A stretch of 49,578 nucleotides of DNA, filler included, from Jimgerdemannia flammicorona (Eukaryota), in assembly GCA_003990765.1 (NCBI GenBank). It is 2 parts of 2 records of this genome, joined end to end, with 100 filler letters (N's around TTAATTAATTAA, not from the genome) between each part and the next. Parts side by side here need not be neighbours in the genome. Positions count along the whole stretch, not along the records: positions 1 to 24,739 come from RBNJ01000932.1; 1 more part is not named here. The stretch is one strand, 5' to 3'. The position numbers and the translations under genes were made by a program. This document shows, piece after piece, positions 438 to 28,074 of this stretch (within the stretch, counting starts at the first letter, position 1; the number at the start of each line of letters is the position of its first letter). The notes beneath the pieces are model-generated. The model worked only from the letters and a program-made list of their open reading frames with translations, was not told the origin of the DNA and ran no database searches.

Positions 438-1280
438 GTATATATACTACCCACAAACTGATAAATAAACTGAATGAGCAAATCAGACTCTCAAGTAGAT
501 ACTAAGAAACTATATTTCTTACAAATAAGATAACTGAGAACAATATCTTATTTTCATAGAGTTTATCTATAATAACTTAGTATAAGACTCAACAGACTTC
601 ACATCTTTCAAGTTACTATATGGTCAAGATGTATAAACTTTATCCAGCCTACTTACTTAAGTTAAGAAAGAATTCTTTAAAGTTTCTACCACCTAAGATC
701 TCATTGATAATATGACTATAATGATTTAAGTTACTAAAGATAACTTGCTCAAGGCCCAGATATATCAAGACCCAGATATGATAAGTCAAATATACCAATA
801 CTAGAAGATAGGAGATTGAATTCAAGATTGGCAATTAAGTACTCTTATCTACTATAAACCTCAATTTGATATTCTAAGTCAACCACTCTTCCAAGAAACT
901 CTAAGCAAGATATATTAGTTCTTATGAAATACTTGAATAAATATCTTCTATAATATATAAGTTAATACTACTATAGAACATCTATATATATTCTGTCTTC
1001 TATATCTCTCTATTTAAACTATACTATAATAGTCTACACAAGTACCTGAACTAGACTCCTCAGTCATTAGCACCTCTTTTGATTAATAGTTATATTGAGT
1101 ATAAAGTTGAGAAGATTCTTAACAAATATATATATTATAATCATACTGAGTATCTTGTTAAATAAGTAGGCTATCCTGAGTATGACAGTACTTAAGAATC
1201 TATTGAAAATCTCAAGAATACCCAACAAGCTCTCTATGAATACAAATATTGAGAACAATATTCTCTTTCAAGTAAAAGAG
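438..1280 (+). pseudogene. Heavily decayed 3' end of a chromoviral Ty3/Gypsy pol (integrase C-terminus, GPY/F, chromodomain)
   Basis: Hand translation gives PQTD..TE.ANQTL (~450), ST.FT.FKLLYG (~590), SKKL.ARYI..YEILE (~890) and chromodomain-like EYKVEKIL..EYLVK*VGYPEYDST*E..ENL (~1097-1215). A purine tract followed by TGT lies at ~1273-1284. Confidence 0.75.
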
Positions 1281-1589
1281 AATGTAATAATCCTTTATAT
1301 TCTATTTTTTTTTGCTAAATTATTATTTTTTTCTTTATCATATTACTTAGTAGAATATTCCAGAATAGCTTAGAATAGTATGAAATTACTTAGTCATTTG
1401 CTAAGAATCTGTTTCCTAAATAGTTCTGTTAATATTCTATCAATTATTAATCAATACTTAATAACTCTCTGTAATATTCTACTAAGTTTTGCCCAGTATG
1501 ACTCATTGCTCAGCATCCAGCTTAGTAATATTCTATCTGTTTCTTCTTCTTTCTATTTCTCTTATATAAATACTCTCTCAAAATATCTC

Positions 1590-2820
1590 AATAAAGCTCA
1601 GTCTAGTTAGTTATTATATAATCACTCAAATCTCCTAAAGGTAATTGAACTTCTCAAGTTCTATTTCTTAAATTTAGTTATATATTTCTATTTGGACATT
1701 TGCTAATATATAGTCTAAGTCTTAGATCTCATTTAACTTAACTATATTGAAGCACTTTTATACTTCAATAAGTGTAATTATTCTCTACAATATATATATT
1801 TATCAGTTCTAGCTCAAGAAAAATCTAATCAATAGTACTATATAATAGCTTATATAAGCTGAGCTACTAACCAATTATAGTAGTACTAAACTGGAATATC
1901 TTATAGTAATATGAGTAGTTATTCTATTTAAACACTATCTTATTAGAAAAAGATTCACTTTAATAACTGACCATATTACTCTAAAATGGCTATTTACCTA
2001 TATGAAACTTATTAAAATTCTTATCTGCTAAATTCTTATTATAAGATTACAAAATTATCATTATCTATAAGGTAAGAAAAGCTCACAACAATATTGATAT
2101 ACTTTCTTGCTAACTCTAATAAACTAGAAGAAGAATATACTAAGAAACTATACTCTAAAGAAAGCTTCTATAACTATCAAAATATAAGAAGACCTTATCT
2201 GAAAGAATATCAGAAAGTCTATCAAGAATAGGCAAATATAGAAGAAAAACTATAAATAATATATCAATATTGGCTCAACCTCAGAACATAAGTCAGAGAT
2301 ATACTCAAGAAATATAATATCTACCAGAAGTACTAAGAAAAGAAGAACTACTAAGTACTACTATAATCAATTATACTACTAGACAATATCTTTCAGAGAT
2401 AGAGAGTAGATGTTATTAGACTCCTATTAGTTATACTAAGAAGGAATAAATATATTCTAATATTTGTAGAATATCTAACTAAATGATCCAAAGCTTTTCC
2501 AATAAAAGTTGCTGATACCTTAACTATTATTAGTCTTCTCTATGATCTCATACTTAGATATAGACCCCCAGAAGAATATATTTCTAATTGAGGCACAGAA
2601 TTCATTAACAATATAATCACAAGTTATATCTGAATTCACATCTCAATAAACTATATTATATTACTCTCAAATCAATAGTATGATAGAATGAATGAACTAG
2701 ATTATTAAGAAAGAACTTGTCCAAGTCAATCCTATTAACTAAGATCTCTACTTATCTGAGATTCTATGGGAAATTCAGAATACTGAATATTATCAACTAT
2801 ATTGAAGTCTTGTTTTCTGA
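1590..2820 (+). pseudogene. Heavily decayed Ty3/Gypsy RNase H-integrase relic (a different element)
   Basis: VLAQE..IAY, NYSSTKLE and FKHYL..KRFTLITDH (~1805-1975), then NKYILIFVEYLTK*.KA (~2445) and GTEFIN (~2592). Confidence 0.75.
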
Positions 2821-2934
2821 GAAAGAGAAGAGTCACTAGAATGGAGTAATTTAGATACTGAAGAAGAAGGTGGTATAGATATAGATACTGAAGATACTTA
2901 TAGATATTATAATGATAACTAAATTATAGTCTAT

Positions 2935-5145
2935 AAAGGACATAACTACTGAATAGTAATTACAAAGTTTGCCATCTGGTCTATATATAATAATACTACT
3001 ATAAAATGTGTTCATAATTAGTTACCAAATAAAAATTTTATCTAAACAATTTTATAATTACAAATATTATCTTTTTCCTACTACAGATAGTCTGTGAAGT
3101 ATCCATGACATATATCTATAATATAGAACTGCTTTCACTTTATAGAAGAAGTCTTTTTTAGTCTCTTTGGAAGTCCTTTTAATAATCAGAAAATATACAA
3201 TTACTGGGAATATATTTTGTAAGTATTTGCACTGAATATATTTAGAGAGATTACTAATAAAAATATATAGCATATATATTTTAGTATATCTAAGCAGATT
3301 ATAATATATTTGGTCAATCTCAGGTAATATCAGGATTACTATTATACCAAGTGAGAGTTTTTTCTATAGTTTAAAAAAAGAATTATAGTTTGCAAACAGT
3401 GAGTATACTGACTGATCACTTGTAAACTTAAAATTAATTATTATTTTACCTATATTTGCTATCAAAAATTACTCTAATGTATCTCAGAGTACCATCTGCA
3501 GTATAGTATTTCTCTGCTTTAAATTTCATATTGTCCTTGAATAAAGTATTTTACATTAGCTTATACAGAATAGTAAGTAGATCTTAATAGAATAGTATAT
3601 ATTTACTAATTTAAGTTTTAGATAATGTGACGGTACAGCCAAATTTGGAAGAAGGAAATAGGGAATAGACACTTGATCGCACCCATTCCCAAAGTAGTAT
3701 AGCCTCATAGTTAGCAGTCCTCGATTTCGACATTGTCTAATTTCTTAGACATTATCCAAATCGAATACCCCGATTTAGCATAGCATTTAGACATTGTCTA
3801 AATGTTTTGACAAAGTCCAAATGACTCATTTATTACTTAGCCACCCTCTCATAGCTAGCAAACTTGTATAAATAACCCAGTATCTTCGAGTGAATAAACC
3901 TCAGATCGAAATAGTTCAAAGCAAAGAGATAGCAAAGAAACTAGTAAGCCTGCGGGCAGATATACTTCGAACTCACCCACCCTCCCCTGCAACTTCAAGA
4001 AGACTCTGTGAGAGTCAGAACAGTCAAGTTTTCAAGATACAGAAATCCAACGTACTTTCAAGAGTAAGTGTCCGCTACGTTACAATAAATAAGTAATATT
4101 AAAAACTTTATAATTGAAGGACTAATTTAAAAAAGAGAATTACTGAATGTTTATTGATTTAACAGATACATTAACTGTTTAATTATATATCACTCTATTT
4201 TTAGTTACTATATCTAAAATTTTTATTATCTCTCTTGAGTTTATAAACTAGAGGGGTCTGTTTGCTATTAAAATTCTTTTATCTATAAATATATTAAGAA
4301 GTTCATCTGCAACCTTTTGAGATATATTTTCACTTCAAAATAATAGATTTGTGAACTAAATTTCTCTATCATTCTTCTAAGAATATAAAGAATAATTTAT
4401 ATCAGTTATAGATATTTATCTGAGTTTAGAAATAAATTTGTTATACTGTATATACTTCTTTACTATTGATAATCTAACTATCAGTTGGTTTATAGATAAT
4501 ATAATTCTTATTGAACTCCAATATAGTAGATAGACTTCTCTGATCTTAAATTGAATTATTATTCTCTCTAAATAATTATCTTTTCTCTTAAATTAAATTG
4601 TCATTTTCACTGAATAATGAGCTTTTCTATTCTTAAATTGAAGATAATTACTACTGATATTATCTTGAATTATATATATATTCTTAGTATAATTATCTGA
4701 AATCTTTTAAGTTTATTTATATAGATTGCTCAAACTTAAAATATATGTGAAATTCAAGGTTAACTTATGAACTATAGATGAATTCATAAATAATAATAGT
4801 ATAATATTAAAGTTACTAAAATCTTAATAATCTGAAAATTCAAGGATAGACTTATCATTCTGATATTGTGTAAGTATATCATATATATATCTTATAGATA
4901 TATTAAGTCAATTCTGAGGCAGATTTGTACTTTAGATTGCAATATAAGCAAGAAAGCTTTATATTAATATTAGATTTAAAGTAGAGAAGGATTTGAAGGA
5001 TAATATGAATTTTAACAGTAAGTTTATAATCATGAAATATATTGATCTAAAATGAAATTCTTTATCTGATTGATTTTACACTTTTGCCCTTACTTAATAT
5101 ACTTACTTAGTATATATTTACTTGATATACTTGCTTAATATATAC
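2935..5145. repeat. Unclassified AT-rich dispersed repeat 'X', copy 1 (interrupted by the solo LTR at 3626-4084)
   Basis: Colinear with 27810-28058 plus 36790-38340; differences are mostly transitions. Family not identified. Confidence 0.8.
3626..4084 (+). mobile_element. Solo LTR, subfamily A (459 bp)
   Basis: TGTGACGG...TACGTTACA termini, near-identical to 5146-5621, with a 4-bp TSD ATAA (3622-3625 / 4085-4088). The empty-site paralog is at ~37215-37235. Confidence 0.95.
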
Positions 5146-5621
5146 TGTGACGGTATAGTCAGATTTGGAAGAAGGAAATAGAGAATAGATACTTGATCGC
5201 ACCCATTCCCAAAGTAGTATAGTATTATAGTTAGCAGTTCTCGATTTCGACATTGTCTAAATTCTTAGACATTGTCTAAATTTTGGACATTATCCAAATT
5301 GAATACCCCGATTTAGTATAGCATTTAGACATTGTCCAAATGTTTCGACAAAGTCCAAATGACTCATTTATTACTTAGCCACCCTCTCATAGCTAGCAAA
5401 CTTGTATAAATAACCCAGTATCTTCGAGTGAATAAACCTCAGATCGAAATAGTTCAAAGCAAAGAGATAGCAAAGGAACTAGTAAGTCTGCGGGCAGATA
5501 CACTTCGAACTCACCCACCCTCCCCTGCAACTTCAAGAGACTCTGCGAGAGTCAGAACAGTCAAGTTTTCAAGATACAGAAATCTGACATACTTTCAAGA
5601 GTAAGCATCCACTACGTTACA
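5146..5621 (+). repeat. 5' LTR of element A
   Basis: TG...CA termini, U3 tandem GACATTGTCTAAAT-like repeats, TGACTCA, TATAAATA and AATAAA. Confidence 0.95.
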
Positions 5622-5624
5622 ACT

Positions 5625-5646
5625 TGGTGTCCATTGGCTGGTAATT
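5625..5646 (+). promoter_or_regulatory. Primer-binding site
   Basis: TGGTGTCCATTGGCTGGTAATT lies 3 nt after the LTR end and starts with TGG (complement of tRNA CCA). Element B has the same position and similar sequence at ~13619. Confidence 0.75.
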
Positions 5647-5735
5647 CAAGGCAAATCCCTCAATTTCAAGCTGAACAACAAATAACTACCACTATCCAAA
5701 CAACCATACAAACCAAGTCCCAATACCCAGACAAG

Positions 5736-8700
5736 ATGGATATGAGACTGCCAGTATTCCATGGATATACCTCAGATGAATCAATCATCACCTTTATTGA
5801 TGATTTCGAGCAGTATGCTGCCGTAAGGACTCTGACAGCAGCACAGCAAGTAGCCCTCATGCCCTTCAGCCTACAAGGCCCTGCCAGAGCAGCATTCACA
5901 GCCACAACCCATGTAGGAAATGATGCCGATGCTGTACTGACAGCACAGAAGACCTGGCTCCGAAATACATATTACACAGATGAGATCAAGCAAGCTCTGA
6001 AGGATCAGCTCAACACAACGTGCCAAGGAATGAGTGAGGATCCAAACACATTCTATACCAGAATTCGATATCAGATAATCCTTGCAGATTATGCTGCTGC
6101 TACTCAAGATCAAGTAGCTGAAGCAACCTTCATGAAAGGAGTCCATCCAGAAATAGCCATGGCCATCTGCTCATCACCAGTGATTCTGGATCTGCCACAA
6201 AGGGTCACCTATGCTCAGCGATACTGGATAGCCAGACACCCACAAGACCATACAATGGAGAGAGTTACAGGAGTCAGAATCGAGGCACCCAAGGCAACCA
6301 GTGTGATCCCCACTACAATGATCAATCAAAACACACCTTAGCCAAAAGCTACCGAGCAGCAAAAGAACAGCGACCCTATGGAGGAACTTGCCAAAAGGTT
6401 TGCTGAAATGACTGCCCACCTAGGAGATATGGTAAAGGAAATCCGAGGAAGAGATTGCTGCCCTGTTCAGAAGTTTGCTACCACCTCAGATAAGAAGAAA
6501 GGTACCTGCTACAGCTGCGGAGAAGAAGGCCACTACTCCTATGAATGTATGAGTGAAACCAAATGCAAGGCTCAACCAAGCAATGCCACATGAAACAAGG
6601 AGCAGGCCAATACAATCACCTTTGAAGAAATCGGAGAATCTGATGAAGAAGAATGAGAGACCTATCCTACTCAGACCACCAAGAAGGATGTTCACAAAGA
6701 ACCCTACAAGAGACCACCAGGAAGACCCAAGAAGAACCCAGTGGAAAAGCAGATGGAAACTGCTACAGAAAGTAAAACCGAAGAGATAGACCAAGATATT
6801 GAGCTGGAGCAAGCAGTTCAAGATATCATCCAAGGGACTACTCTAGCCAGCAAAGGAGAAAAAGAAAAGAAGCTTCGCAAGACCAAGACCTTCAAGTATG
6901 ATATCTTCAAGGATCTCAGTCAACAAAAGGTCAATACAACCTTTGGTCAGCTTGCAGAAATCCCAACATTCAGACAGCAAATGAGGTTTGGACTTGCCGA
7001 AACAACTAAGGAACAAAGATGGAAGATAACCGAGGCCAATAATGTTCAAGAGGACTCAGGAGAAGAAAGTGAGGATAATCGCAAAACCTCTGCTTATGCA
7101 ACATGCCAAATTGAGGATCGAGTCTTTGAAGCCATCATTGACACAGGAGCAGGAGGATGTCTCCTCAGTAAGAAGGCAGCAGACCGCCTAGGTTGGGATG
7201 TGGAAGAAGCAACTAAGCTAGTATTCATCACAGCTGATGGCATAAGAGCCACATCTCTGGGAAAGATCTGAGATGTTCCCATCAAGATCGGAGGAGCAAC
7301 AATCCTAGTAGATGTAATCGTAACCAATGCCACCAACTATGACATCCTCATTGGCAATCAATGGCTTCACAAAGCCAAGGCAGTAATCGATCTCAATGCT
7401 CAGAAGATGCAGATCACCTACTGGGGACAGAAGATACGAATTCCCATCAACATCAACAAAGGAGTCCTGCTCGATATGGAGGAAAAAGAGAGCAAGCAAG
7501 AGGAAGCTTATATGGTGACTACCCCTAAGAAGAAGAAAGTTGGATAAATGAGTGAAGAAGAATGGTGCAAGAAGATCGCAGAAGGTTATGCCCCACAAGG
7601 AGTCTGTCCTCATGGAATCAAGATGTACTGTATGGAGCATGTCAATGATTGCTACCAGTGCACCATCGGAACCAGGAAGATCTACCAGGAAAGAAGCCAG
7701 AAAGCTCTCGAAAAACAGACCATGGAAGAAGAGAAGGAGGAAGATGATGAACCACCAGCCCTCCTGGAGGACAGTGATGATGAAGAAGAAATTAAGGTCA
7801 AGATTTGAAAGATCTACCCTAATGCAGTCTTGCCAGAATACAAGTCAGAAAACACAGCCAGAATGGACATCACTATAGTAGAAGAAACTGTACTTGAACC
7901 CCAGACAACCACCCTACTCGCAACTGGACTAGAGATGACCATTCCAAAGGATCATGTCAGGATTCTCAAGACAAGAAGCAGCCTGGCTAGAAGTGAAATC
8001 ACAATTGAAGGAGGAGTCATTGATTCAGACTATACTGGAGAAATTCTACTCATTGCTAGGAACCACAACCCTACAATTCCATTCCCAGTCAAGAAGAAGG
8101 ACCGATTGGCACAGATGTTGATCTTCCCAATCATACAGCCAAGGATCATAGAAGTCAAGAATCTGGAGGAAACAAAAAGAGGAAAGAAAGGATTCGGATC
8201 CACAGGAAGAGGAGTATTCACCAGCACCAAGATCACTGAACTCGAGCATAAGAAGGAGGAAAACATGAGCAAGCACAGTTATACCATTGGAGACGAATTC
8301 CCACTCAAGAAGGAACTCAAGAAAATACTCCACAAATTCAAGGATGTTCTTGCCATGGATTTCAAGGATATCAAGGGAAAGACCCCACACTACTATCATG
8401 AGGTAGATACTGGAGACACCGAATCAATTTATCAGAAAGCAAGACCTGTCCCGCCAGCCTACTAAGAATGGCTCAGAGAAGAAATCAAGCAGATGGAAGA
8501 AGCCAGTATCATCAAAGAAGCCAGCAGCCCCTGGTCTTCACCAGTTGTACTAGCCCTGAAAAAAGAAAGCAAACCTGGAGAATTTGCCCCAAGGCTCTGT
8601 GATGACTACAGAAAGCTCAATGCAGTCACCAAGAAGGATCGCCAACTACTGCTGCTCATCAGTGACATCCTTATAACACTGGGAGACGAAGCACAGTACT

Positions 8701-9713
8701 ACAGCACCTTGGACTTATACTCAGGATTCCACCAAATCGGACTCACAGAAGTGGCAAGTGAAAAGTCAGCCTTCATCACCCCAGACAGAATCTACATCTA
8801 CCTACAAATGCCATTCAGAATGTGCAATGCACCAGCAAGCTTTCAGCGAATGATGAACAAAATCTTCCACTATGACATGGGAAGATAGATGATGGTCTAT
8901 GTTGATGATGTAATTATCTACAGCAAGACGGCCAAGGAACATCTGCAGCATATACAGCAGATAATGGAGAGACTAAGACAACATGGCCTTTATATCAAAC
9001 CCAAGAAGTGCAAGTTTGCAGAAATCGAGATCTTCTATCTTGGCCATATCATCAATTGAGATGGAACACACATAGACCCCCTCAAGATATAAGTGGTAGC
9101 AGCATACCCAAGGCCCACTACTGTCACAGAAGCCCAAGCCTTCATGGGACTTGCCTCCTACTATTGCAGATTCATTAGAGGATTCTCCAACATCGCAGAC
9201 CCAATCTACGAACTCAACAAGAAGGATACCAAGTTCCAGTGGACTGGCAGACAACAAAAAGCATATGATAAACTCAAGGTCAGACTAACTCAGGCACCCA
9301 TCCTTAGATGACCCAATTGGACTCAAAAATTTATCCTTCAGACGGATGCAAGTGCATAGGGACTAGGAGCAGTCCTAGCTCAAAAAAAAGACAAAAAAGA
9401 GTATGTCATTGCATATCTTAGTTGTGGAACCCAAGGGACTGAAAAAGAATATGAGTCCTATAAGTTGGAATGCCTTGCAGTCATCTGGGCTGTAGAAAAG
9501 TTCCACTACTATCTGGCCGGAAGACACTTCACCATCCAGATGGACCACTCAGCTCTCACCTGGCTACTGACAACTGGACAACCCAAGGGAATCTATGCCA
9601 GATGGATAATGAAGTTATAAGCCTATGATGTAACCATCATGCACCACCCTGGAAGAACAAATTCCAATGCAGATGCTCTCTCACGGACACCTCAAACTAC
9701 CTCCAACCAATAA
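5736..9713 (+). pseudogene. Gag-protease-dUTPase-RT-RNase H polyprotein, single frame with premature stops
   Basis: All ORF fragments (5634, 6378, 6741, 7548, 7830, 8493, 9093) share one frame. Motifs: zinc knuckle CYSCGEEGHYSYEC, protease IIDTGAG, RT SPWSSPVVL / DYRKLN / LDLYSGFHQI / YVDD, RNase H LQTDAS.GLGAVL / DHSALTW / NADALSR. Confidence 0.93.
7790..8210 (+). pseudogene. dut: dUTPase domain between protease and RT
   Basis: Trimeric dUTPase motifs TRSSLA, GGVIDSDYTGEI, DRLAQML and RGKKGFGSTG. Confidence 0.93.
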
Positions 9714-9720
9714 ATCAATC

Positions 9721-10914
9721 ATGAATAAGGAGCTCTACTATGGAATTATCACATACCTGGGACAGCGAAAGATGCCCCAACATCTGGAAGAATGGACACA
9801 AATGATTATCAACAGAACATGGAAACAATTCGAAACTGACAGAGAAACACTGAAGAAAGGAAAACTACTAGTTATACCAGAACACAAGAAGGAGCAAGCA
9901 ATGAAATCAGTACATGAACTTGGCCATCTAGGAGGAACAAATACATACGACAAGGCAAGGAGAACAATATGGTGGCCAGGGATAGAGGAAGATATCAGAC
10001 AATTCGTCAAGACCTGTGACAAATGCCAGAAACAGAAACAAGACCAACGAAATCAAGCCCCAGGATCAGCACACATAGAATCAGTACCATTCGCCCACAT
10101 TGCAATGGATGTAATCAGCCCCTTACCCTTGACTTTGACTGGCAACTGATACATCATTGTCATTGTAGACCTTTTTACAAAGTGGATAGAAGTGGGACCC
10201 CTTATGGAAGCCAATGCACAGTCAATCGCCGATTTCTTCTACAAGGAAATCATCTGCCAGTTCAAGACCCCAACACAAGTAACTACAGATAGAGGAACCG
10301 AATTCATGAACCAGTTCTTTGAAGTTCTCTACAAGAAGTACAAGATCCAGCACATTCAGATCACAGCCTATCATCCTCAAGGAAATGGACAAGTAGAAAG
10401 GACCAATAAGACCCTCAAGAATGTTATCACCAAGATCTGTGATAACTACAAGAACTGGGATCACTATCTGCCAATAGCATTATCTGCTCTCCGGGATATC
10501 CAATCACAAAGCACCCACTTTATCCCTTAAGAAATGCTGTTCGGAGAAGAATGTTCTCAAGGAACCCTATTATCCAATGCAGATGCTGTATGGAAACATA
10601 TGGACATTGAAATATGGAGACTACACCAAATCAGGAAGAAGGCTGAGGATTATATAACCAAGGCACAGACACTACAATGGAGGAATGTGGAAAAGACCCA
10701 CAAGCCCTTGGAGATTATCAAGATAGGAGACAAGGTCCTGATGTATCGGAACATGGTAGAAGCTTCATGGTCACGAAAACTGGAGCCTAAGTGGGAAGGA
10801 CCTTACCTTGTGCAAGATATAAAAGGGACCACCTTTTGGCTACGAAAACCCTCAGGCATAATAATCCCCACCACCATTCACCGAAACTGACTCAAGAAAT
10901 ATCATGACCAGTAA
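9721..10914 (+). pseudogene. Integrase encoded as a separate ORF, with premature stops
   Basis: Own ATG at 9721 in a different frame from RT-RH. HHCC (HELGH...CDKC), DDE (MDVISP, TDRGTEF, GQVERTN) and GPY/F (KLEPKWEGPY); no chromodomain. Confidence 0.9.
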
Positions 10915-11365
10915 CAAAAGTACTGCAATGGCACTCAAGATCACTAGTGCTGCCCAAAGAGCCATTGAAAGACAATAGCACACCACCAAGCCTCCAACCA
11001 TAGAGCCATACTATGAGAATATTCAGAGTATTGTGCAGACTCATCTCTCTCGGATCTTGCACTTCAGAGCCTATCAATATTGGGCAGAATTCCAAGAGTA
11101 CTTCAAGCTTGGACAGGTGCTCAATCAGGATCCAGCAAAGACCAAGGAGGACTGGATTGCTGAGTGTCAACTCTCCCACTTACAGATCACTATTGCCAAA
11201 AGGATCCATAAGTTATTCCGAGAAGATGAAGCAGCGATAGACCACCTGAGAGGAGTAACCCCTACTGACTTCGAGAAAGTGAGAAGACATCATTGGGAAA
11301 CAGTCATGCAGCAAATCACACAGTACAAGACCATACAGACCATTGAAGCCTAGGAGTTTGAATAG
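10904..11365 (+). pseudogene. Third ORF (~153 aa, unknown function) between integrase and PPT
   Basis: ATG overlaps the integrase stop (ATGACCAGTAA) and there are two internal TAG codons. The homolog in element B (17837-18297) is conserved at the protein level with many synonymous changes. Confidence 0.8.
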
Positions 11366-11391
11366 ATGTCTCAGGGATGAGACCATCCATT

Positions 11392-11402
11392 CAGGAGGAA
11401 GT
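11392..11402 (+). promoter_or_regulatory. Polypurine tract
   Basis: AGGAGGAAGT immediately before the 3' LTR; the equivalent in element B is AGAAGGAAGT. Confidence 0.75.
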
Positions 11403-11878
11403 TGTGATGGTACAGTAAGATTTGGAAGAAGGAAATAGGGAATAGACACTTAATCGCACCCATTCCCAAAGTAGTATAGCATTATAGTTAGCAGTCCTCG
11501 ATTTCGACATTGTCTAAATTCTTAGACATTGTCTAAATTTTGGACATTATCCAAATCGAATACCCCAATTTAGTATAGCATTTAGACATTGTCCAAATGT
11601 TTCGACAAAGTCCAAATGACTCATTTATTACTTAGCCACTCTCTCATAGCTAGCAAACTTGTATAAATAACCCAGTATCTTCAAGTGAATAAACCTCAGA
11701 TTGAAATAGTTCAAAGCAAAGAGATAGTAAAAGAACTAGTAAGCCTGCGGGCAGATACACTTCGAACTCACCCACTCTCCTCTGCCACTTCAAGAGACTC
11801 CGCAAGAGTCAGAACAGTCAAGTTTTCAAGATACAGAAATCCGATGTACTTTCAAGAGTAAGCATCTGCTATATTAAA
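11403..11878 (+). repeat. 3' LTR of element A
   Basis: Direct repeat of 5146-5621; the terminal CA is mutated to AA. Confidence 0.93.
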
Positions 11879-11999
11879 ATATATAAAAGACTATATTATA
11901 TAGATAAGTAGTATAACTATGAAATAAAAGAATAGATCAATATTTTTATAATAATAGCTTTATTTTTATATTATAAAATAGATAATTATATATATATAT

Positions 12000-13000
12000 A
12001 ATATTATAATAATGATAATATGTATAGTATTCATTAATATATAAGTAAATAATAATATTATTATTATCAGTAAAATTCAGCTTAATAGAGTAAAAAAACC
12101 CTATATTGAAAGTTTAAAATATATAATAGATATAGATAATATATTCTTCTTTTTAAAAATATTAATTATATATAACTGAAATATCTGTATTATATATCTC
12201 TTACAAGTAATATATATTAAAGCCATTCTCAAATACTTTAATAGAGACTTCTATAAAGGTAAGAAAGTCTAATACTATTTTTAAGAATAGTGATAATATA
12301 TCTATTAAGAATATTAATTATATTTTTTATTGATAAGCTATCAGAAGTCTTTTGTATTTAATACTTAAAATGAGTCCTGATATATATATTCTATATTATT
12401 AATAAAGTAGTGAAGTATTACTCATACTATGATAATAGTCAGTAATTAATAGAATTTTTAAATACTTAAAGAGATCAGTATATGATATACTTATATTAGA
12501 TAACTATAATATTATGTTGTACAGAAGTAATAGTAAGAGAAACATCTAACTATCTGATATATGACTTGGATAATTATTGGTCTATAATCAGATATCTCTT
12601 CTATATTAGTAAAAGTAATAAAAAGTTGATCATTTTATAGCAAATATATAAGCAGAATTCTATCACAATCTTATCAATAGTAATAAAGAAGGTCATATTA
12701 TTCTGTAAATTATTAAAGAAGCTTGACTTCACTCAGAAGTATGACTTTATACTTATCTGCTAAGATAAATAATTAATTATAGTATCTCTAAAGAATTCTA
12801 TCTATTTTAGTAGAATGAAATACATCAATATATTCTATCATTTTGTATAAAAAAGTGTAGAATATAGAAATATATACTTGAAATACATTTCTACAGAATA
12901 TGTAATTATAGATTTATTAATGAAGCCTCTTTCAGAATTCAAATTCAAAATATTCACTTAAGAAATAGGTCTTATAGATAATACTATACCAGTATTTGGT
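12000..13000 (+). pseudogene. Heavily decayed Ty1/Copia RT-RNase H 3' relic
   Basis: SRMKYINIFYHFV and YIST....DLLMKPLS (~12810-12935) match the Copia HxRTKHIDIxYHFVR...ADxLTKPL motif after transitions; a PDI-like motif lies at ~12376. Confidence 0.7.
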
Positions 13001-13121
13001 GAGATCTAGTAATCTTATAAACAGTTGATCATGAGACTTTTCAGGCTCTTAAAAGCCTCTTATACTATACTTATATCTATATATATTTATTACATCTCTC
13101 ATCTATGAGTGGGTTATATAC

Positions 13122-13615
13122 TGTGACAGTTGATCTGAATTAGTAATATGTATGTATAAATCAGAGAAATTAGATATTTGATCATAGTATCTGAACTCAA
13201 TTCCCAATATAGTATAGCCTAATAAATAGCAATCATTTCACAGGTGTTAAAGTTTTCACAAATGTTTAAATTTCACAAATGTCAAGAATTCACAGATGTT
13301 AAATCTTGATAATTGTCAAGATTTTACAGATGTTAAGAATTTATACTTGTGAAAAGTGACTCATAACATAATCATAACTTAGCCATCTTATAGCTAGCAA
13401 ACTTATATAAATAACTCAGTATCTTGAGTAAATAAACCTCAGATCGAAATAGTTTAAGAGCAAAGAGAAAGTAAAGGAACTAGTAAGCCTATGGGCAGAT
13501 ATACTTTGAACTCACTCTTCTGTACTCTAAGGACTCTGCAAGAGTTAGAACAAGTCAAGTTTTCAAGATATAGAAATCTGCCATACTTTTGAGATTAGGT
13601 ATCTACTACATTATA
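13122..13615 (+). repeat. 5' LTR of element B
   Basis: Direct repeat of 18339-18831. U3 carries TTCACAAATGTCAAG-like repeats; the TATA/R/U5 part is shared with LTR-A. Confidence 0.93.
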
Positions 13616-16600
13616 ACTTGGTGCCCATTGGATAGTAATTCAAGATAAATCCCTCACTTTCAAGCTGAATAATGAACAACTGCTACCACTTGAACAACTA
13701 TACAAATTGAACCAAGACATCTGGACAAGATAGATATGAGACTACCAGTATTCTATAGATATACTGCAGATGAATCAATCATTATCTTCATTAATGATTT
13801 TGAGCAGTATACTGCTGTAAGAACCCTGACAGCAATACAGCAAGTAGTCCTTCTGTTCTTCAGTCTCTGAGGACCAGCAAGAGCAGTATTTGCAGTTGCA
13901 ACCTATATAGAAAATGATGACAATACAGTACTAGAAGTATAAAAGGCCTGGCTTTGAACTATCTACTATATAGATGAGATCAAGTAAGCCCTAAAGGATC
14001 AAATACAACTTGTCAAGAAATGAGTGAGAATCCAAATACATTCTACACCAGGGTCTGATATCAGATAATCCTTGCAGATTATGCTGATACCATCTGAGAT
14101 CAATTAGCCAAGATAACCTTTATGAAAGGAGTTTACCCAGAGATAGCCCTAACCATCTGCTTATTACCAATAGTCCTGGATCTACTACAAAAGGTTACCT
14201 ATACCTAGTAATACTGGATAGCCAGATATCCACAAGATCATATAATGGAAAGAGTCACTAGAGTTAGAATTGAAACACTCAAGGCAACCAGTGTAATCCC
14301 TACTAGAGTAATCAATCAAAACACACCTCAGCCAAGAGCTACTGAACAGTAGAGGAATAGCAACCCTATAGAGGAGCTTACTAAGAAGTTTGCTGAAATG
14401 ACAGCCTACCTAGGAGATGTGATAAAGGAAATTAAAGGAAGAGAGTGGCACTCAGTTCAGAAATTTGTCACCACCTCAGATAAGAAGAGAGATATCTGCT
14501 ATACTTGTGAAGAAGAAGGTTACTACTTATATAAATATATGAGTGAAACTAAGTACAAGGTCCAGCCAAGCAATATTACTCAAAATAAGAAATAGATTGA
14601 TACTATTACATTTGAAGAGATTGGAGAATCAGATAAAGAAGAATAAGAAGCTTACTCTGCCAAGATTATCAAAAAAGATATCTGCAAACAACCCTACAAG
14701 AGATCCTCAGGGAGACCCAAGAAGAACTCTATAGAAAAGCAGATGAAAACTACTACAGAAAGTCAAGGTAAAGAAACAGATCAAGATATGGAGCTTGAAT
14801 AGGCTGTTCAAGATATCATCTGAGGAACTACTCCAGCTAGTAAAGGAGAAAAGAAGAAGAAGCTTTACAAAACTAAGATTTTTAAGTATAATATTTTCAA
14901 GGACCTCAGTCAATAAAAGATCAATACAACCTTTGGCCAACTGGCAGAAATACCTACATTCAGATAGCAAATGAGATACAGACTTGCTGAGACAACTAAG
15001 GAGCAAGGTTGGAAGATAACTAAGGCTAACAATGTTCAAAAAGACTTAAGGTAAGAAAGTGAAAATAATCACAAGACCTCTGCCTATGCAATCTATCAGA
15101 TTGAAGATAGAATCTTCAAAGCCATTATTGATACAGGAGCAGGAGGATGTCTTCTCAGTAAGCAAGCAGTAGACTATCTAGTGGGAGGTTGAAGAAGCAA
15201 CTAAGCTGGTGTTTGTCACAGCAGATGGTATAAGAGCTATCTCTCTAAAAAAGATCTGAGATATTCCTATCAAGTTTGGGAGAGCAATTATTCCAGTAGA
15301 TGTGATTATGACTAATGCCACCAACTATGACATCCTTATTAGCAACCAGTGGCCTGATGAAGCCAAGGCAATAATTGATCTGAATACCCAGAAGATACAG
15401 ATTATCTACTGAGGCCAGAAGATGTAAATTCCCATTAATATCAACAAAGGAGTGCTGCCTGAGATGAAGAAAGAAGAAAGTAAGTAAAAAGAAGCCTATA
15501 TAGTAACTACTCAGAAAAAGAAAAAGAAAGTCAGATAGATCAGTGAAGAAGACTGGTACAAGAAGATCATAGAAAGATATACACTACTAGGAGCCTGTCT
15601 CTATAGAATCAAGATGTACTATAGCAAGCACATCAATGACTGCTACCAATATAGTATTGGTATCAGAAAGATCTACTAGGAAAGAAGACAGAAGGCTCTC
15701 AAAAAACAGACAAGAGAAGAGGAGGAGAAGGAAGAGGATGACAAACCACCAGTCCTCCTAGAGGACAGTGATGATGAAGAAGAAATAATAGTCAAGATTT
15801 GGAGGATCCACTCTGATGCAGTTCTATCAAAATACAAGTCAGAGAATACAGCCAGAATAGATATTACTATAGTAGAAGAAACCATACTGGAGCTCCAGAT
15901 AATCACCCTACTTGCAACTGGTCTGGAGATGACTATTCCAAAGGACCATATTGGAATCCTCAAGACAAGAAGCAGCCTGACTAGAAGTGAAATTACAATT
16001 GAAGGAGGAGTCATCAATTCTGATTACATATATTGGAGAAATACTACTTATTGCTAGGAACTACAATCCTATAATTCCATTTCCAATTAAGAAGAAGGAC
16101 TGACTGATACAGATATTAATCTTTCCAGTTCTTCAGCCAAGGATCATGGAAGTCAAGAAGTTGGAGAAAATAGAAAGAGAAAGGAAAGGATTCAGATCTA
16201 TAGAAAGAGGAGTATTCACTAGTACCAAGATTACTGAACTAGATCACAAGAAGGAGGAAACTATAAACAAGTATAGCTATACTATTGGAAATGAATTCCC
16301 ACTCAAGAAGGAACTCAAGAAGATACTTTATGAACTCAAAGATGTCCTAGCCATGAATTTCAAGAATATCAAAGGAAAGACCCTATACTACTATCATGAC
16401 ATAGATACAGGAGACACTGGATCAATCTATCAAAAGTAAGACCAATACTATTAGCCTACTGTAAATAGCTCAGAGAAGAAATCAAGAGATGGAAGAAACT
16501 GGTATCATTAAAGAAGCCAGCAGTCCCTGGGCTTCACCAGTTGTACTATCTCCAAAAAAAGAAAGCAAGCTAGGAGAATTTGCCCCAAGACTCTATACTG

Positions 16601-18338
16601 ATTATAGGAAGCTCAACTTGGTTACCAAGAAGGACCTCTAACCATTAAATCAATCATAAATAAGGAGCTCTACTACAGAATTATCACTTACCTGAGACAG
16701 CAAAAGATGCTCCAATATCTGGAAGAATGGATATAAACAATTATCAACAGAACTTGGAAACAATTCGAAATCAATAGAGAGATACTGAAGAAAGGAAAGC
16801 TACTAGTTACATCTGAACACAAGAAGGAGCAAGCAATAAAATCAATATATGAACTTGGCTATCTAGGAGGAATAAACATATATAATAAAGCAAGAAGAAC
16901 AATGTAGTAACCAGAGATAGAGGAAGATATCAGACAATTTATCAAAATCTGCAACAAATATCAGAAATAAAAACAAGACCAATGAAACCAAATCCCAGAA
17001 TCAGCACACATAGAATCAGTATTCTTTGCTCATATAGCAATAGATGTAATTGGTCTGCTACCTCTGATATTAACTGGTAACCAATACATCATAGTCATTA
17101 TAGACCTTTTCATAAAATAGATAGAGGTAGGACCCCTCAAGAAAGCTAATATACAGTCAATTGCCAATTTCTTCTATAAAGAAATTATCTGCTAATTCAA
17201 GACCTCAGCACAAGTAACCACAGATAAAGGAACAGAATTCATGAACTAGTTCTTGAAGGTTCTCTATAAGAAATATAAGATCTAGCATATTTGGACCACA
17301 GCCTATTATCTATAAGAAAATGGATAAGCAGAAAGAATCAATAAGACTCTCAAGAATATTGTTACCAAGATCTACAATAACTATGAAAACTGGAATCACT
17401 ATCTGCCAATAGTATTATCTGCTCTTTAGGATATCTAATTACAAAGTACTCACTTTACTCTCTAAGAAATGCTATTTGGAGAAGAAAGTTCTCAAGAAAT
17501 CCTATTGTCCAATGAAGATACTATATAGAAACATATGGATGCAGAGATATGAAGACTCTATCAAGTCAGAAAGAAGGCTGAAGATTACATAACCAAGGTA
17601 CAGACAATATAACAGAATAATGTAGAAAAATTCACAAGCTCTTAGGGATTATCATAATAGGAGATAAAGTTCTGGTATATCAGAATATGGTAGAAGCTTT
17701 ATAGTTACAAAAACTAAAGCCTAAATAGGAGGACCTTACCTTGTACAAGATATAAAAGTAATCTCCTTTTAGTTATAAAAACTCTCAGGCAGAATTATCC
17801 TCACTACTATTTACTGAAACCTACCCAAGAAGTATTATGGCTAGTTAATGAAGTATGGCAACAGCTCTCAAGATCACTAGTGCTGCATAATGAGTCATAG
17901 AAAGACAATAATGTACTACTGAGCCACTTACAATAGAAGAATCTTTGACAGTATCCAAAGTATAGTACAGATATATTTGTCATAAATTTCATACTTCAAG
18001 GCCTACCAGAATCAGACAGAGCTTCAAGAATACTTCAAGTTAGGATAGCTACTGAACTTATAGCCAGAGATGGAAAAAGAAGACTGGATTAAAGAGTGTC
18101 AGCTCTCTCATACTCAGATTACAATTGCCAAATAAGTTAATAAGCTATCTAAAGATAATGAGCCAGCCATAGCCCATCTTCAAGAAGTAGCTCTAGGAGA
18201 CTTTGGACATATCAAGAGATACTATTGGAAGAACATAATGATACAAATTATATAGTACAAAGAGATACAAATTGTAGATACTTGGGAGTTCAAGTGAATA
18301 GGATATTTCAGGGATAAATTACCTATTCAGAAGGAAGT

Positions 18339-18831
18339 TGTGATGGTTGATCTGAAATGGTAACATAAATTAGGGAAATTAGACATTTGATTGTAGTACC
18401 TGAATCCAATTCTTAATATAGTATAGTCTTATAAATAGCAGTTATTTCATAGGTGTTAAAGTTTTCACAAATGTCAAAATTTTACAAATATCAAGAATTT
18501 ACAGATATTAAATCTTGACAATCATTGAGATTTTACAGATGTCAAGGATTTATACTTGTAAAAAGTAACTCATAACAATAACATAGTTATAACTTAGCCA
18601 CCTTATAGCTAGCAAACTTATATAAATAACTCAGTATCTTAGAGTGAATAAACCTCAGATTGAAATAGTTCAAGAGCAAAGAGAAAGCAAAGAAACTAGT
18701 AAGCCTATAGATAGATATACTTCAAACTCACTCCCCTACATCCTGAGGACTCTGTGAGAGTTAGAATAAGTCAAGTTTTCAAGATACAGAAATCTGCCAT
18801 ACTTCTAAGGTTAGGTGTCCACTACATTACA
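18339..18831 (+). repeat. 3' LTR of element B
   Basis: TGTGATGG...ACATTACA, preceded by a PPT. Confidence 0.93.
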
Positions 18832-20112
18832 ATACATACATTTCTACAGATATCTCAGAATACTTTTCAACATGCAAAAATCTCTAGATATAGGATTTTA
18901 ATAAATTTTTGGGTTACATCTATTTTTAGTTTGGCATGCATTATGCATTGCATTTCTTCTAGTTTGCATTACATATTCTTGCAGTTTTCATCTTTTTTGG
19001 GTTACATAATTATCTCGTTGAACTCGATATGTCAGCGCCATTTTATCAGTTTTACGTCATTCATCAGTAACGCGAGAAATACGCGACCTACGCAACTTCA
19101 ATAAAATTGCACAATAACGAATTGCCAATCCCATCTGACGGAATTACCAAATTGTCAACTGGAAGATATCAACGGGAACAACAGAGTCGTTGACTTAAAA
19201 TAAGTCGATGGGATCAATCACTGTATCAAGTATTGCCGTCGGCACAGTCAAACCAACGAATCGTACATCCGCCGTCCGATTGCGCAAACCAAACAGGCAC
19301 CGAATCGATTTTCGGGCCAAGAACGTTGCCTTAATCGCATACCGAGTAACCGAGTAACCGAATAACCTTCATTTTTCCATCCACGGATATTGAACTATAC
19401 AAAACGTATGCCACAATAGAAACAAAACTCGACAGTCGCAAAGCGTCTAATCAGCGTTAGCATACTCGGATTCTCAAAGCCAGCGGGACGTGGATATGTG
19501 GCGATGAGATTAAGGTTAAGTTTCACACCGAAATTACAGATGCCTTATTTATTATTATTATTATTATACAATACCAAATAGTTACTAGATATAAAAAAAA
19601 TCATTGAATAAACGCAGAACGTTGACCGACGACTAAGCACAGAATGACAGTACAGGACGGTAACGAATGGCGACTAAACGGAGGATTGTAATGAACGACA
19701 GTTTGAGTGCAGAATAGGATAGCGCTCTGCGTGGGTAAACCTAGAAGACCGACCACTGCGAGGTACTCACGAAGCGACTTCAGTGTTGTCAGCAGAGGGA
19801 TTTTGGTCATTGCAGGACGTCATTGCAGTAGAGTATAATTATGTCGTGGGCGTGCGAATGAAGGAAAGAGGTGGCACGACCTGGCCACAAGACTGTGCCT
19901 TAATTTGACTAACAGCGCGCTCCTTTTTTTTTTTTTTTTTTTTTATAGATATCAAACTTTAGTAATCATTGAAACGAGACTTTATTTACAATTTTTATTC
20001 ATTTATTTTTTTCGTAGAGATATAAAGTAATCGTCGACTTCAAAACTTGGCAGCTCACGTCAAAGAGAATGGGTGCTCAATAAAAAAAAACCCCCCTCTT
20101 ACCGCCTTCTCG

Positions 20113-20819
20113 TCACTGACACCCCCACCCTATTCGCTCCATTTGAACCCAGTCCAAACACAGTCCGCTCTTGGTGTAGCTACAATCGACGTCCCGTATG
20201 TGGCACTTGACGTTCTTCCCAGCATCGGCATTGGTAATAATTATGCGCTGCGACAACCTGTACTCGGTCCACTCGGACTCCTTCAACGTGTGCCAGAATC
20301 CTTCGCCCGGTTGTTCCTCCAAAGACATATTCCCGTCAATGACCTCGTAACCAAAGCGTATTCTGTACAAACTCCGGCTCGAATTTCCCACGACCTTGAG
20401 CCGCCAGACAACTTCATACTGGCCGGGGCGCACGTTGCGAAACTCGCCATCGGCGGCCATCCACCAGACCCACCTAGGCTGACGATCTGACCGAACTCCG
20501 ACTCGAGATCAGGAATACGTGACCAGTACCGATTGTCGAGCCAGGTGACGTCGCTTGCGAGGTAGATCTTTGGGGAGGAGAGGCGGATATAGGCTCTCAG
20601 GTAGGATTCGCCGCTGAGTTCGGGGTGGGCGCTGGGAAAGTCCACGAGGAGTTTCAACTGCCACAGCCATTCACTTCGTGTGAGGTCGGCAATGCGACGG
20701 TACGCCAGGGCAGCCTGCAGGACGTCGAGTGGGCTGACAAGGACGAGAATATTGACAAGGATTTCGTTTGGAATGTTGTCAAAGCCACAGTTGGCAGACG
20801 TTTGAGTAAGTGGTGGCAT
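20113..20819 (-). pseudogene. F-box protein with a C-terminal PP2 (phloem protein 2)-like lectin domain; 1-bp frameshift near 20475 (pseudogene or sequence error)
   Basis: F-box FDNIPNEILVNILVLVSPLDVLQAALAYRR...WLW. PP2-like motifs TWLDNRYW, SEFGQIVSL.WVWW, GQYEVVWRLK, WTEY and TKSGLCLD are split over two ORFs; adding one base at CTA GG TGG joins them. CpG content is intact. Confidence 0.75.
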
Positions 20820-21383: not shown

Positions 21384-23112
21384 ATGGGCCAGTCTCTGTC
21401 TAGATTCTACGCGGTCAAACGCAAGGAAGGCCGCCGTAAGAATCTTGCACCCCAGGAGATACCTGGTGACAAGCCTCCTACCAAAGACTCGCACGGGGAC
21501 CCAATTCCTGAAGACTCCAAGGTCATCGATGGTAGCCTTTTCAAGAAGTCTGGCAGCGCCGTTTACCCGCTACCGAACGACAAGTCTGAGTATGGCCGCT
21601 TGAACACCCAGCACTATCTTATCCGGTGAGCGATTCGATTTGAATTCTTAATGGCAAAATCGCATCCCATTGCGACATAGTCTTTTGTATTGAAAATTCA
21701 GCCGTCAAAAGTACGGTTGGAATGTGGTGGAACTATGGAGGCGTTAAAGACCACAAATCTGACCGCCTTTCTGATCCGCAAATTAGCTATATTTTTCAGA
21801 GGTAGGAATTGATGTTTAAATTTTATGTAAACTATGCGTTGTGGTCACCATTGTTTATTCATACCATTTAAATCACCAATCTTTCTGTTGTAGTAATTAC
21901 AAAGCACCCGTCACTGAAGACCTGGAACGTGGAATAAAAGTCCTTGACGCCGGGTGAGTCACTCTTCCACCCCTATCATTTATTCCAACAACAACCATCT
22001 CCGAAGGTGCTAATAGGAAGCTGTCTGCATCCTCCAGCTGCGGCACCGGCGTCTGGACAATCGTAAGTGCCCTGTCCAATGTCGACCTCTCGTAGATCAA
22101 TTGTACTGCCCGCCTGATCCCCTTTTCTCTCCCCTGCCTCGAATTCAACCACTACACAGGAGATGGCTAATGAGTTTCCGAACTCGACCTTCATCGGTAC
22201 CGACATTACCAACGTCTTTGCCGTGTCGATCGAAAACGCGCCGTCCAACTGTACCTTCCTGGAGGCCGATACGACCAAGCGCTTGCCATTCGACGACAAT
22301 ACGTTGGACTATGTGTTCCAGCGTTTCCAAATCGGGTGTTTCGCAAAAGCAACGTGGCCTATTGTCATCAAAGAGCTTATGAGAGTGTGCAAGCCCGGGG
22401 GTTTTGTTGAGCTGGGTAAGGTTCTTTTTTTTTTTTTTTTTTTTAAGTTTTTATTCACATTCTTTTTCTCGCATGATTCTCATTCTCCATGTTTTACGCG
22501 CAGTCGAAAGCATATACCCGAATGACTGCGGCCCGGCGTTGTCAAAGCATGGTGAATGGTGTGCGTATTCTCCATTCTCATTCTCTGTCTCATTGTTATG
22601 TTATCCTCATCACACATCACATCCTCTTACCCCCCCCCCAAACTTCCCGCAGTTGAAACTCTCCTCTCCCTCCGTGGCGTCGACGCTAAGGTTTTCAAGA
22701 CCCCGGAGCTCGTCATCAACGCGGGCCTGCTTGATCTCCAAAGCTCGTACTCGCCCTGGCGGCTTAACTGGGGCCCCGATAAGAAGCTAGGCGAGCTGAA
22801 TGCACAGGTTTGTGCTCTGGCCCTGTTGGCTACCTCCCTTCAATCCCCCCTCGTGCTATTAAAGACTCATTCCTCCCCTCCTTTCCATAGAATTACATGA
22901 GGGGAATTCGCAACCTCCGCGCCCATATCTGCACTTCCCTCGGCATTGGCGATGACGAGTACGAAGAGGTTATGCGCGGATGCGAGGCAGAACTGCTCGT
23001 ACCGGAGGTGGAATATAAAGCGTCTCTTACCATCTTCGACTACTACGGCCGAAAACCCTTTCCCGTCACAGACGACGCCCAGCTCAAGATACACAAACCT
23101 TTGGAAAAGTAG
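21384..23112 (+). CDS. Class I SAM-dependent methyltransferase (LaeA-like / Methyltransf_23-25 type), 8 exons, 343 aa
   Basis: Exons 21384-21625, 21787-21801, 21894-21953, 22038-22062, 22160-22415, 22504-22560, 22653-22807 and 22891-23112. All introns are GT-AG and the exons total 1032 nt in frame. Motifs: YPLPND..E..RL..QH, VLDAGCGTGVW, GTDI, LPFDDNTLDYV, ELMRVCKPGGFVEL. Confidence 0.92.
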
Positions 23113-24839: not shown

Positions 24840-25007
24840 ATCAAATTTGGATGATTATTCATCAAATTATTGATGTAAACATTTAATTGTCTAATTTGGA
24901 AATCAAAACAATGGTTGATTCGAATCCCATCCGAGTTGATCCGGATGGGATTCAATCCGAATCAATCCGAATCCAATCCGGATTAAATTGACTCGTTAGG
25001 AGCACTA
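24840..25007. mobile_element. Right terminus of a CpG-intact hAT-family element
   Basis: Ends AATTGACTCGTTAGGAGCACTA; its reverse complement matches the TIR at 28059 (TAGTACTCTGAATGAGTCAATT). Has ATCCG(A/G) subterminal repeats. Confidence 0.8.
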
Positions 25008-26977: not shown

Positions 26978-27454
26978 TGTAACATAGTGGATGCTTACTC
27001 TTGGAAGTACATCAGATTTCTGTATCTTGAAAACTTAACTGTTCTGACTCTCGCAGAGTCTTCTTGAAGTTGCAGGGGAGGGTGGGTGAGTTCGAAGTGT
27101 ATCTGCCCACAGACTTACTAGTTCCTTTACTATCTCTTTGCTTTGAACTATTTCGATCTGAGATTTATTCACTCGAAGATATTGGGTTATTTATACAAGT
27201 TTGCTAGCTATGAGAGGGTGGCTAAGTAATAAATGAGTCATTTGGACTTTGTCGAAACATTTGGACAATGTCTAAATGCTATACTAAATTGGAGTATTTG
27301 ATTTGGATAATGTCTAAAATTTAGACAATGTCTAAGAAATTAGACAATGTCGAAATCGAGGACTGCTAACTATAATACTATACTACTTTGGGAATGGGTG
27401 CGATCAAGTGTCTATTCCCTATTTCCTTCTTCTAAATCTGGCTGTACCGTCACA
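26978..27454 (-). mobile_element. Solo LTR, subfamily A (477 bp)
   Basis: Reverse complement of LTR-A with a perfect TSD ATAT (26974-26977 / 27455-27458). Confidence 0.95.
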
Positions 27455-28058: not shown

Positions 28059-28074
28059 TAGTACTCTGAATGAG

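Follow-up and report, generated by a model that had tools for sequence, protein, structure and literature searches.

An additional reading frame between pol and the 3' long terminal repeat of a Jimgerdemannia flammicorona Ty3/gypsy retrotransposon probably encodes a small helical accessory protein

We analyzed a stretch of 49,578 nucleotides (hereafter the window) from the genome of Jimgerdemannia flammicorona (GenBank assembly GCA_003990765.1), made of two joined parts. It contains two copies, A and B, of a Ty3/gypsy-type long terminal repeat (LTR) retrotransposon, each with an additional open reading frame (ORF), ORF3, between pol and the 3' LTR. ORF3 is very probably a real coding gene under constraint, and its product is probably an accessory protein that serves the element. 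Computational evidence describes it as a soluble, hydrophilic, all-helical protein of about 17 kDa that probably has no enzymatic function. The original prediction, made from the DNA sequence alone, had proposed a soluble accessory protein of about 150 amino acids under purifying selection in the env position. This proposal is supported by an intact frame of 153 amino acids elsewhere, a ratio of nonsynonymous to synonymous differences of 0.26, and a hydrophilic composition. The description of ORF3 as conserved holds for independent contigs, where the frame is intact, but not for the window, where both copies are dead pseudogenes inactivated by transition mutations.

Coding constraint on ORF3 and its carrier element

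In copy A, ORF3 (10904..11365, plus strand) comprises 153 codons and a stop, running from the ATG at 10904 to the terminal TAG at 11363-11365. This is exactly the span first proposed, and it is obtained by reading through two internal TAGs at 10976-10978 and 11351-11353. Tryptophan is found in every aligned homolog row that reaches either of these two columns. The copy A peptide quoted originally, FQEYFKLGQVLNQDPAKTKEDWIAECQLSHLQITIAKRIHKLF, is present in frame from this ATG, and so is, stops included, the copy B peptide LQEYFKLG*LLNL*PEMEKEDWIKECQLSHTQITIAK*VNKLS. The copy B frame (17837..18297, plus strand), located by tblastn with the family proteins P0001 and P0014, is interrupted by 10 internal stops and has lost 1 nt near 17941-17947. 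An unrelated metagenome contig of 6479 bp (L001), with a gag-pol frame of 1258 amino acids and integrase pieces, encodes an intact ORF3 of 153 amino acids at 5795-6256, downstream of gag-pol. ORF3 is thus present at the same place in other members of the element family.

Relative to pol, ORF3 is in the +1 frame in both copy A, where the overlap with the pol end is 11 nt, and L001, where ORF3 shares 44 nt with the end of the integrase C-terminal frame. The natural end of copy A pol is the TAA at 10912-10914; a TGA at 10888-10890 in the pol frame occupies the position of an arginine codon in L001, as seen in the junction alignment. Copies A and B and L001 share the position of the ORF3 ATG as well as an A at -3. 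ORF3 occupies the whole space from pol to the polypurine tract, and only 37 nt, with the tract among them, separate its stop from the 3' LTR. Like accessory ORFs in general, it is a sense-strand frame inside the LTRs and apart from gag and pol, and it recurs in A, B, and L001 at the same place.

Differences between copy A and L001 fall 37, 27, and 86 times on the first, second, and third codon positions, respectively (151 codons; 3 of 154 skipped for stops), in agreement with the many third-position differences noticed at the outset. Compared with an even spread, this corresponds to a chi-square of about 40 by our own arithmetic. We calculated the Nei–Gojobori proportions of nonsynonymous (pN) and synonymous (pS) differences for the three nucleotide copies A, B, and L001, skipping stop and gap codons. 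Between A and L001, pN is 0.211 and pS is 0.804, the latter saturated. The pN/pS ratio is 0.263 for A–L001, 0.269 for B–L001, and 0.265 for A–B, which is not near 1, and the ratio of substitution rates (dN/dS) for B versus L001 is 0.146. When the same region is read in the two other frames, pN/pS rises to 1.19 and 1.53 for A versus L001, and the alternative-frame values span 0.88-1.53 overall.

Elsewhere in the element, the A–L001 ratios are 0.25 for gag, 0.20 for the linker, 0.32 for protease, 0.27 for dUTPase, 0.20 for reverse transcriptase (RT)–RNase H, and 0.24 and 0.20 for integrase, next to 0.26 for ORF3. ORF3 stays at 0.26-0.27 in all three pairs, so its constraint is that of gag and protease. 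Synonymous divergence between A and L001 is much lower in integrase (9634-10890 versus L001 4516-5793; pS 0.46) than in gag, RT, and ORF3 (0.72-0.80), which suggests a mosaic history or extra constraint there. A further observation concerns the first ~25 codons of ORF3 (ALKITSAAQRAIERQ; 10930-10975, L001 5821-5866), whose nucleotides are near-identical in A, B, and L001, synonymous sites included. A cis-acting signal may overlap the coding sequence here, shortly after the pol stop.

Copy A (5146-11878) has the hallmarks of a Ty3/gypsy (Metaviridae) element, namely an LTR pair, a primer-binding site, a polypurine tract, and the characteristic domain order. The 5' LTR (5146..5621, plus strand; ends from alignment) starts with TGTGACGG, ends with GTTACA, and has a TATAAATA box near 5405. 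The 3' LTR (11403..11878, plus strand) was placed by alignment with it, and the direct repeats 5146-5622 and 11403-11879 are 93.9% identical in a self-comparison of the window. A TGG-starting sequence resembling a primer-binding site, TGGTGTCCATTGG (5625..5637, plus strand), lies directly 3' of the 5' LTR and is kept in copy B, while the polypurine tract AGGAGGAAG (11393..11401, plus strand) adjoins the 3' LTR; both were read from the sequence. The flanks are AT-rich and give no clear target-site duplication (TATAC versus ATATA/TATAT).

The gag-pol coding region of copy A (5700..10914, plus strand, approximate start) is a single long sense-strand reading with many in-frame stops and at least two frame changes. 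Its order is CCHC knuckle, protease, dUTPase, RT, RNase H, and integrase. The Pfam matches, ordered along 6342-10530, are zf-CCHC (E = 2.5e-6), RVP_2 (2.1e-7), dUTPase (7.9e-26), RVT_1 (5.5e-12), RT_RNaseH (2.7e-27), Integrase_H2C2 (2.1e-19), and rve (6.6e-10). This is the Ty3/gypsy order with a dUTPase (7809-8465, plus strand; intact equivalent in L001) between protease and RT. No Pfam chromodomain match follows the integrase, the integrase C-terminal frame 10531-10887 included. The lineage carrying ORF3 is therefore one of non-chromodomain, dUTPase-bearing Ty3/gypsy LTR retrotransposons. Copy B (13374..18838, plus strand), found by blastn of copy A against the window, is heavily decayed and lacks the section that corresponds to about 8646-9699 in copy A. 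The family is also represented by solo LTRs at 3593-4092 and 26971-27459 (minus strand), which share 89-95% identity with the LTRs of copy A.

The original prediction had also judged ORF3 to be more divergent than gag and pol. Between A and B this is correct, with 64.6% identity in ORF3 versus 78-83% from gag through integrase, where the two copies are each other's nearest relatives and L001 is further off. In ORF3, B is instead nearest to L001 (72.7%). A sliding-window comparison places the switch of affinity at about 10900-10970, the start of ORF3, and the U3 part of the LTR (11403-11626) is unalignable between A and B by blastn. The switch at the pol/ORF3 border indicates that copy A acquired ORF3 and U3 from another sublineage by recombination. 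The excess divergence of A and B in ORF3 is thus attributable to this breakpoint, not to faster evolution or relaxed constraint, and ORF3 behaves as an exchangeable module whose constraint is unchanged.

The decay of copy A was followed in contigs of four public runs, three of them labelled soil metagenome and one coded 'organism A', which align to copy A in 30, 30, 30, and 29 of 30 bins. Differences from the window are almost exclusively transitions; in run X1 we count 137 T>C, 97 A>G, 63 C>T, and 48 G>A changes, compared with 24 transversions. These differences fit a C-to-T and G-to-A decay of the window copy. Repeat-induced point mutation (RIP) was considered as the cause, but its signature is not clear. 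The TpA/ApT index is borderline (0.66-1.16), and 31 polarized transitions reveal no CpA preference, with A after 6 of 18 T sites and C before 7 of 13 A sites.

A protein family with a predicted all-helical fold

A search with the ORF3 of copy A, with X at the internal TAG, returned eight proteins of 61-78% identity, all unnamed or 'hypothetical' and from metagenome sources. When 1.84 billion representatives were searched with a profile built from 15 close sequences, seven matches reached E ≤0.001. Three of these are close members and two are distant members of the right length (P0016, E = 3e-6; P0018, E = 9.6e-5). The remaining two, P0017 and P0019, are internally repeated proteins matched in five to six stretches and were discarded as spurious. 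Including the distant members in the profile of a word-indexed search (5.8 billion) yielded 26 proteins; a third round added none, and cluster look-ups brought the family to 52 sequences. All database copies are annotated as 'hypothetical protein' or are unnamed. The collections searched for the family are prokaryotic, viral, or metagenomic, and no cellular homolog is found among the 1.84 billion representatives or in the word-indexed 5.8 billion. Contigs of runs with the label soil metagenome contain the family in abundance. Viral contigs searched with A2, P0041, and P0052 and genome contigs searched with A2 and P0041 gave no match, and the ESM Atlas, queried with P0001, returned only unnamed bacterial, archaeal, or phage clusters and no usable lead.

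The family is divided into three subfamilies with lengths of 150-169 amino acids. The subfamily of the window terminates in EAWEFE. Subfamily 2 is very acidic, with an isoelectric point (pI) of 4.6-5.0 and a net charge of -13 to -14 over the last ~35 residues, and ends in WDV or WDL; its members P0025, P0041, and P0049 are located on contigs of 7.8-8.0 kb. Glu62, Arg100, Phe105, and Ala111 (P0001 numbering) are invariant or nearly so across the three subfamilies, which share the motif IAxR(I/V)(Y/H)x(L/V)F...A(L/I)xH(L/I/V)...P. Gene calls in all three start at the aligned methionine or, in shorter entries, at a methionine further inside.

No Pfam family matches ORF3 at E 0.01. Weak matches at E up to 1, such as TBK1_ULD in 4 of 16 members (best E 0.018), were judged to be chance. 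In agreement with the initial statement that ORF3 is not a chromodomain, Pfam Chromo matches none of 16 family members even at E up to 1, and there is no match to a known integrase C-terminal domain, no Pfam family being found and the frame differing from that of integrase. We also considered ORF3 as a duplicated piece of gag or pol. The profile matches L001 gag-pol with a probability of 1.6%, which is at chance level and stems from a resemblance of IAxRIYxLF to an RT-connection segment, so that this reading was rejected. Another contig, L002, was set aside, as it has a match of only 15 residues and no relatives of the element proteins.

Structure prediction was carried out on P0001, the intact homolog nearest to copy A (78% identity), in place of the broken ORF3 of the window. 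The alignment for the final model has 34 rows, namely 33 of the 52 family proteins and a window fragment, with short fragments and near-duplicates left out. With it, AlphaFold2 yields a predicted local distance difference test score (pLDDT) of 86.5 and a predicted template modeling score (pTM) of 0.82. The model consists of eight helices, formed by residues 2-26, 40-55, 59-75, 81-88, 92-105, 109-114, 120-124, and 128-151. Comparison of this model with the PDB by Foldseek reveals no clear relative (best E 0.47). An exhaustive VIA-align search of 48,161 chains gives a best Z of 4.1 and none at Z ≥5, and the best match in the viral structure library BFVD has an E of 0.23. These searches used the whole model, of which a sub-domain may have a known fold, and they weakly suggest that the predicted fold is novel.

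The hydrophilic character of the protein is reflected in grand averages of hydropathy of -0.53 to -0.77 for family members. No membrane-like stretch is found in the eight members analyzed, where the highest 19-residue Kyte–Doolittle mean is 0.19-1.24, as the original prediction had stated for ORF3.

A prediction with two copies of P0001 scores 0.48, compared with 0.25 for the best of three controls. The mark used for a dimer was reached by 21 of 30 solved same-chain pairs and by none of 23 solved single chains. At least 65% of contacts are common to the runs, and the partner pLDDT is no lower than 62. The predicted interface is symmetric, formed by residues 40-76 and 84-94 of both copies, and coincides with the block that is invariant within the subfamily of the window. 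According to these models, which support binding without demonstrating it, the protein is probably a symmetric homodimer held together by the helical hairpin that is most conserved (residues 40-76, containing the EFQEYFKLG helix).

Possible roles of ORF3 and rival explanations

The ORF3 protein would act as an adaptor or regulator for the propagation of the element itself. Contact with a partner might be established by the helix-loop motif IAxRIYxLF...ALxHLxGIxP together with the acidic, tryptophan-containing C-terminal end. Our single best guess, a tentative one, is that ORF3 works on the LTR of its own element as a transactivator-like factor, because of the 3' position of the gene, its acidic aromatic end, and its co-inheritance with U3. 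A more elaborate picture is doubtful, in which the protein acts as a dimer in transactivation or against silencing, recruits a host factor by its acidic tryptophan end, and co-evolves with the U3 promoter. An integration tether replacing the missing chromodomain, a counter-silencing factor, and a particle or reverse-transcription cofactor are equally placed alternatives within the accessory reading, each of them unlikely when taken singly.

Several points weigh against the overall reading of ORF3 as an accessory gene with a regulatory product. No observation links the ORF3 protein to transcription in particular, and no RNA or protein evidence of ORF3 expression was obtained. The 15 runs listed for it include no RNA, and the contigs of four runs have no joint that would place ORF3 close to the leader, although contigs are not suited to reveal one. 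Co-inheritance with U3 is explicable by adjacency alone. The acidic tryptophan end is missing from subfamily 3, while the acidity of subfamily 2 makes direct DNA binding a poor fit. That subfamilies 2 and 3 belong to retroelements is itself assumed from homology alone. The fold and dimer predictions concern the homolog P0001, not the sequence in the window; a first model, built on the alignment of 15 close relatives, was poor (pLDDT 54), and the dimer prediction was run without the 34-row family alignment. Of 29 eukaryotic proteins known to be homodimers, 17 reached the dimer mark, but only 1 of the 7 without an older solved relative did so.

Finally, ribosomes would have to reach a start codon that lies about 5.3 kb inside the genomic RNA, which this reading does not explain. 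Expression might involve reinitiation after pol termination, an internal promoter, or splicing; reinitiation is suggested because the pol stop and the ORF3 start lie near each other, an arrangement that is conserved.

The same junction bears on another interpretation, in which ORF3 is a C-terminal extension of integrase, produced by +1 ribosomal frameshifting and serving as a targeting domain at the place of a chromodomain. The +1 frame, the overlaps with the pol end (11 nt in copy A, 44 nt in L001), the lack of a chromodomain in this integrase, and a copy A frame that is open for 13 codons before the ATG, from 10865, are all compatible with such a fusion. We nevertheless consider it improbable, as the ATG with A at -3 is kept in A, B, and L001, a TAA at 10862-10864 closes the ORF3 frame 14 codons upstream, the overlap varies in length between the two elements, and no known frameshift heptamer is seen on inspection by eye. 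The gene calls of the three subfamilies, which begin at the aligned or an inner methionine, also argue for a separate protein, though gene callers always start at a methionine.

ORF3 as a passenger, either captured from the host or of benefit to it but with no role in the life cycle of the element, would be in keeping with the exchangeable-module behavior of ORF3 and the breakpoint at its 5' border, and capture of foreign ORFs by LTR elements is described in the available part of PMC5408684. Such an origin is very unlikely given that both large searches yielded no cellular homologs, that the relatives are all small free-standing ORFs of equal length, that the frame is tightly packed between pol and the polypurine tract, and that gag-like constraint persists across lineages with saturated synonymous sites.

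The two last explanations are highly implausible. Were the region conserved as nucleic acid acting in cis (as a 3' untranslated region or as a signal for packaging or priming), with an incidental open frame, the unusual nucleotide conservation of the first ~25 codons in A, B, and L001 and the adjoining polypurine tract would be accounted for. This is contradicted by differences that track a single codon phase (37/27/86), with pN/pS of 0.88-1.53 in the other frames; moreover, the 153-codon frame is intact in several divergent sequences and the family alignment yields a confident fold. A degenerate env gene is suggested by the position between pol and the 3' LTR and by nothing else. It is contradicted by the absence of a signal peptide-like or membrane-spanning stretch (highest hydropathy 1.24), and the size of only 153-169 amino acids, the all-helical globular model, the lack of a Pfam family, and the best E of 0.23 in the viral structure library also disagree with it. 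An accessory protein encoded by the element and serving it is accordingly the reading that we retain.

Surroundings in the window and relation to known systems

Outside the ORF3-bearing elements, two copies of another repeat, 66.6% identical, are located at 33739-36658 and 43302-46193; their plus strand contains about 12% C and about 30% G, with a GC skew of up to +0.5. No Pfam family was found in the 17 frames tested, which come from 33240-33719 and 43160-49057. A block of ~50% GC contains host-like frames, with an F-box domain at 20283-20816 (minus strand) and a class I methyltransferase at 22118-22522 (plus strand), the nearest Atlas clusters of which are mainly from Ascomycota (score 0.95). 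Elements and genes are separated by blocks of 20-26% GC (1000-3500, 12000-13300, 25000-29000, and 37000-43000) with borderline RIP indices (TpA/ApT 1.0-1.16). Rfam and tRNA scans of the window gave no match.

LTR retrotransposons are usually thought to require gag and pol alone. Extra genes maintained by selection point to functions that cannot be borrowed from the host, such as the element's own transcription, escape from defence, or choice of integration site. The ORF3 family is compact and confidently folding, with no Pfam family or structural relative, and natural intact copies of it exist. If it proved to be a regulator or counter-defence factor, it would serve as a new tool and add a case of virus-like complexity among the mobile elements of fungi; if it were merely a structural helper, an annotation gap would still be filled.

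The category to which ORF3 belongs is already known, and what is new here is an undescribed, confidently folding family. In fungal Gypsy elements, a figure legend of PMC2864245 marks an 'add. ORF' with function not known, and the available part of that paper places a dUTPase between protease and RT in one element family of Postia placenta. The ORF3 family may overlap with some of these fungal ORFs. No description of such extra ORFs is contained in the available part of Muszewska 2011 (PMC3248453), and our literature searches, which did not cover the element list in the supplement of PMC2864245, gave no description of the ORF3 protein family. Like the known additional ORFs of LTR elements, ORF3 is an extra frame beside gag and pol, inside the LTRs, and most of these frames are of unassigned function. 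ORF3 shows no sequence relation to any named family.

In bdelloid rotifers, elements carry diverse ORF3s alongside a dUTPase, and those named in the available part of PMC5408684 are env-like, GDSL esterase, and DEDDy exonuclease. The rotifer elements thus share the combination of dUTPase and ORF3, whereas the ORF3 of the window is small and helical, without a catalytic signature. The brtn gene of Botrytis Boty-like elements (Zhao 2011, as cited in the available part of PMC8365987) is antisense, in contrast to the sense-strand ORF3.

A sequence profile search of the PDB gave four matches, all at E ≥0.09. The best, 2q5z/2q73 (E 0.09, not significant; profile positions 44-122), are titled 'hypothetical protein', and we take them to be MazG-like all-alpha nucleotide pyrophosphohydrolases. 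MazG proteins bind metal through the acidic motifs E-x-x-E ... E-x-x-D. ORF3 would resemble these enzymes in a helical hairpin that is predicted to dimerize. It differs from them in having only one conserved acidic residue (Glu62), the segment aligned with the second motif being AKRIHKLF, and no MazG-like chain is found among the 50 structure matches listed (best Z 4.1).

With respect to the chromodomain of chromovirus integrases, ORF3 is a separate frame with its own ATG, all-helical and without a Pfam Chromo match; it shares with the chromodomain a position immediately behind the core and C-terminal module of the integrase, where targeting would be expected. Complex retroviruses have regulatory genes at their 3' end, such as tas/bel1 of spumaviruses and tax of deltaretroviruses. 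ORF3 has no sequence or fold similarity to these, no DNA-binding feature is identified in it, and it is not known to have a spliced mRNA. Like tas/bel1 and tax, it is the gene of a small soluble protein between pol/env and the 3' LTR, and it is inherited with U3, while the acidic aromatic end of subfamily 2 resembles acidic activation domains. If the transactivator or anti-silencing reading is correct, the lineage would be a 'complex' retroelement in the sense of the complex retroviruses, built on a fold without a known relative.

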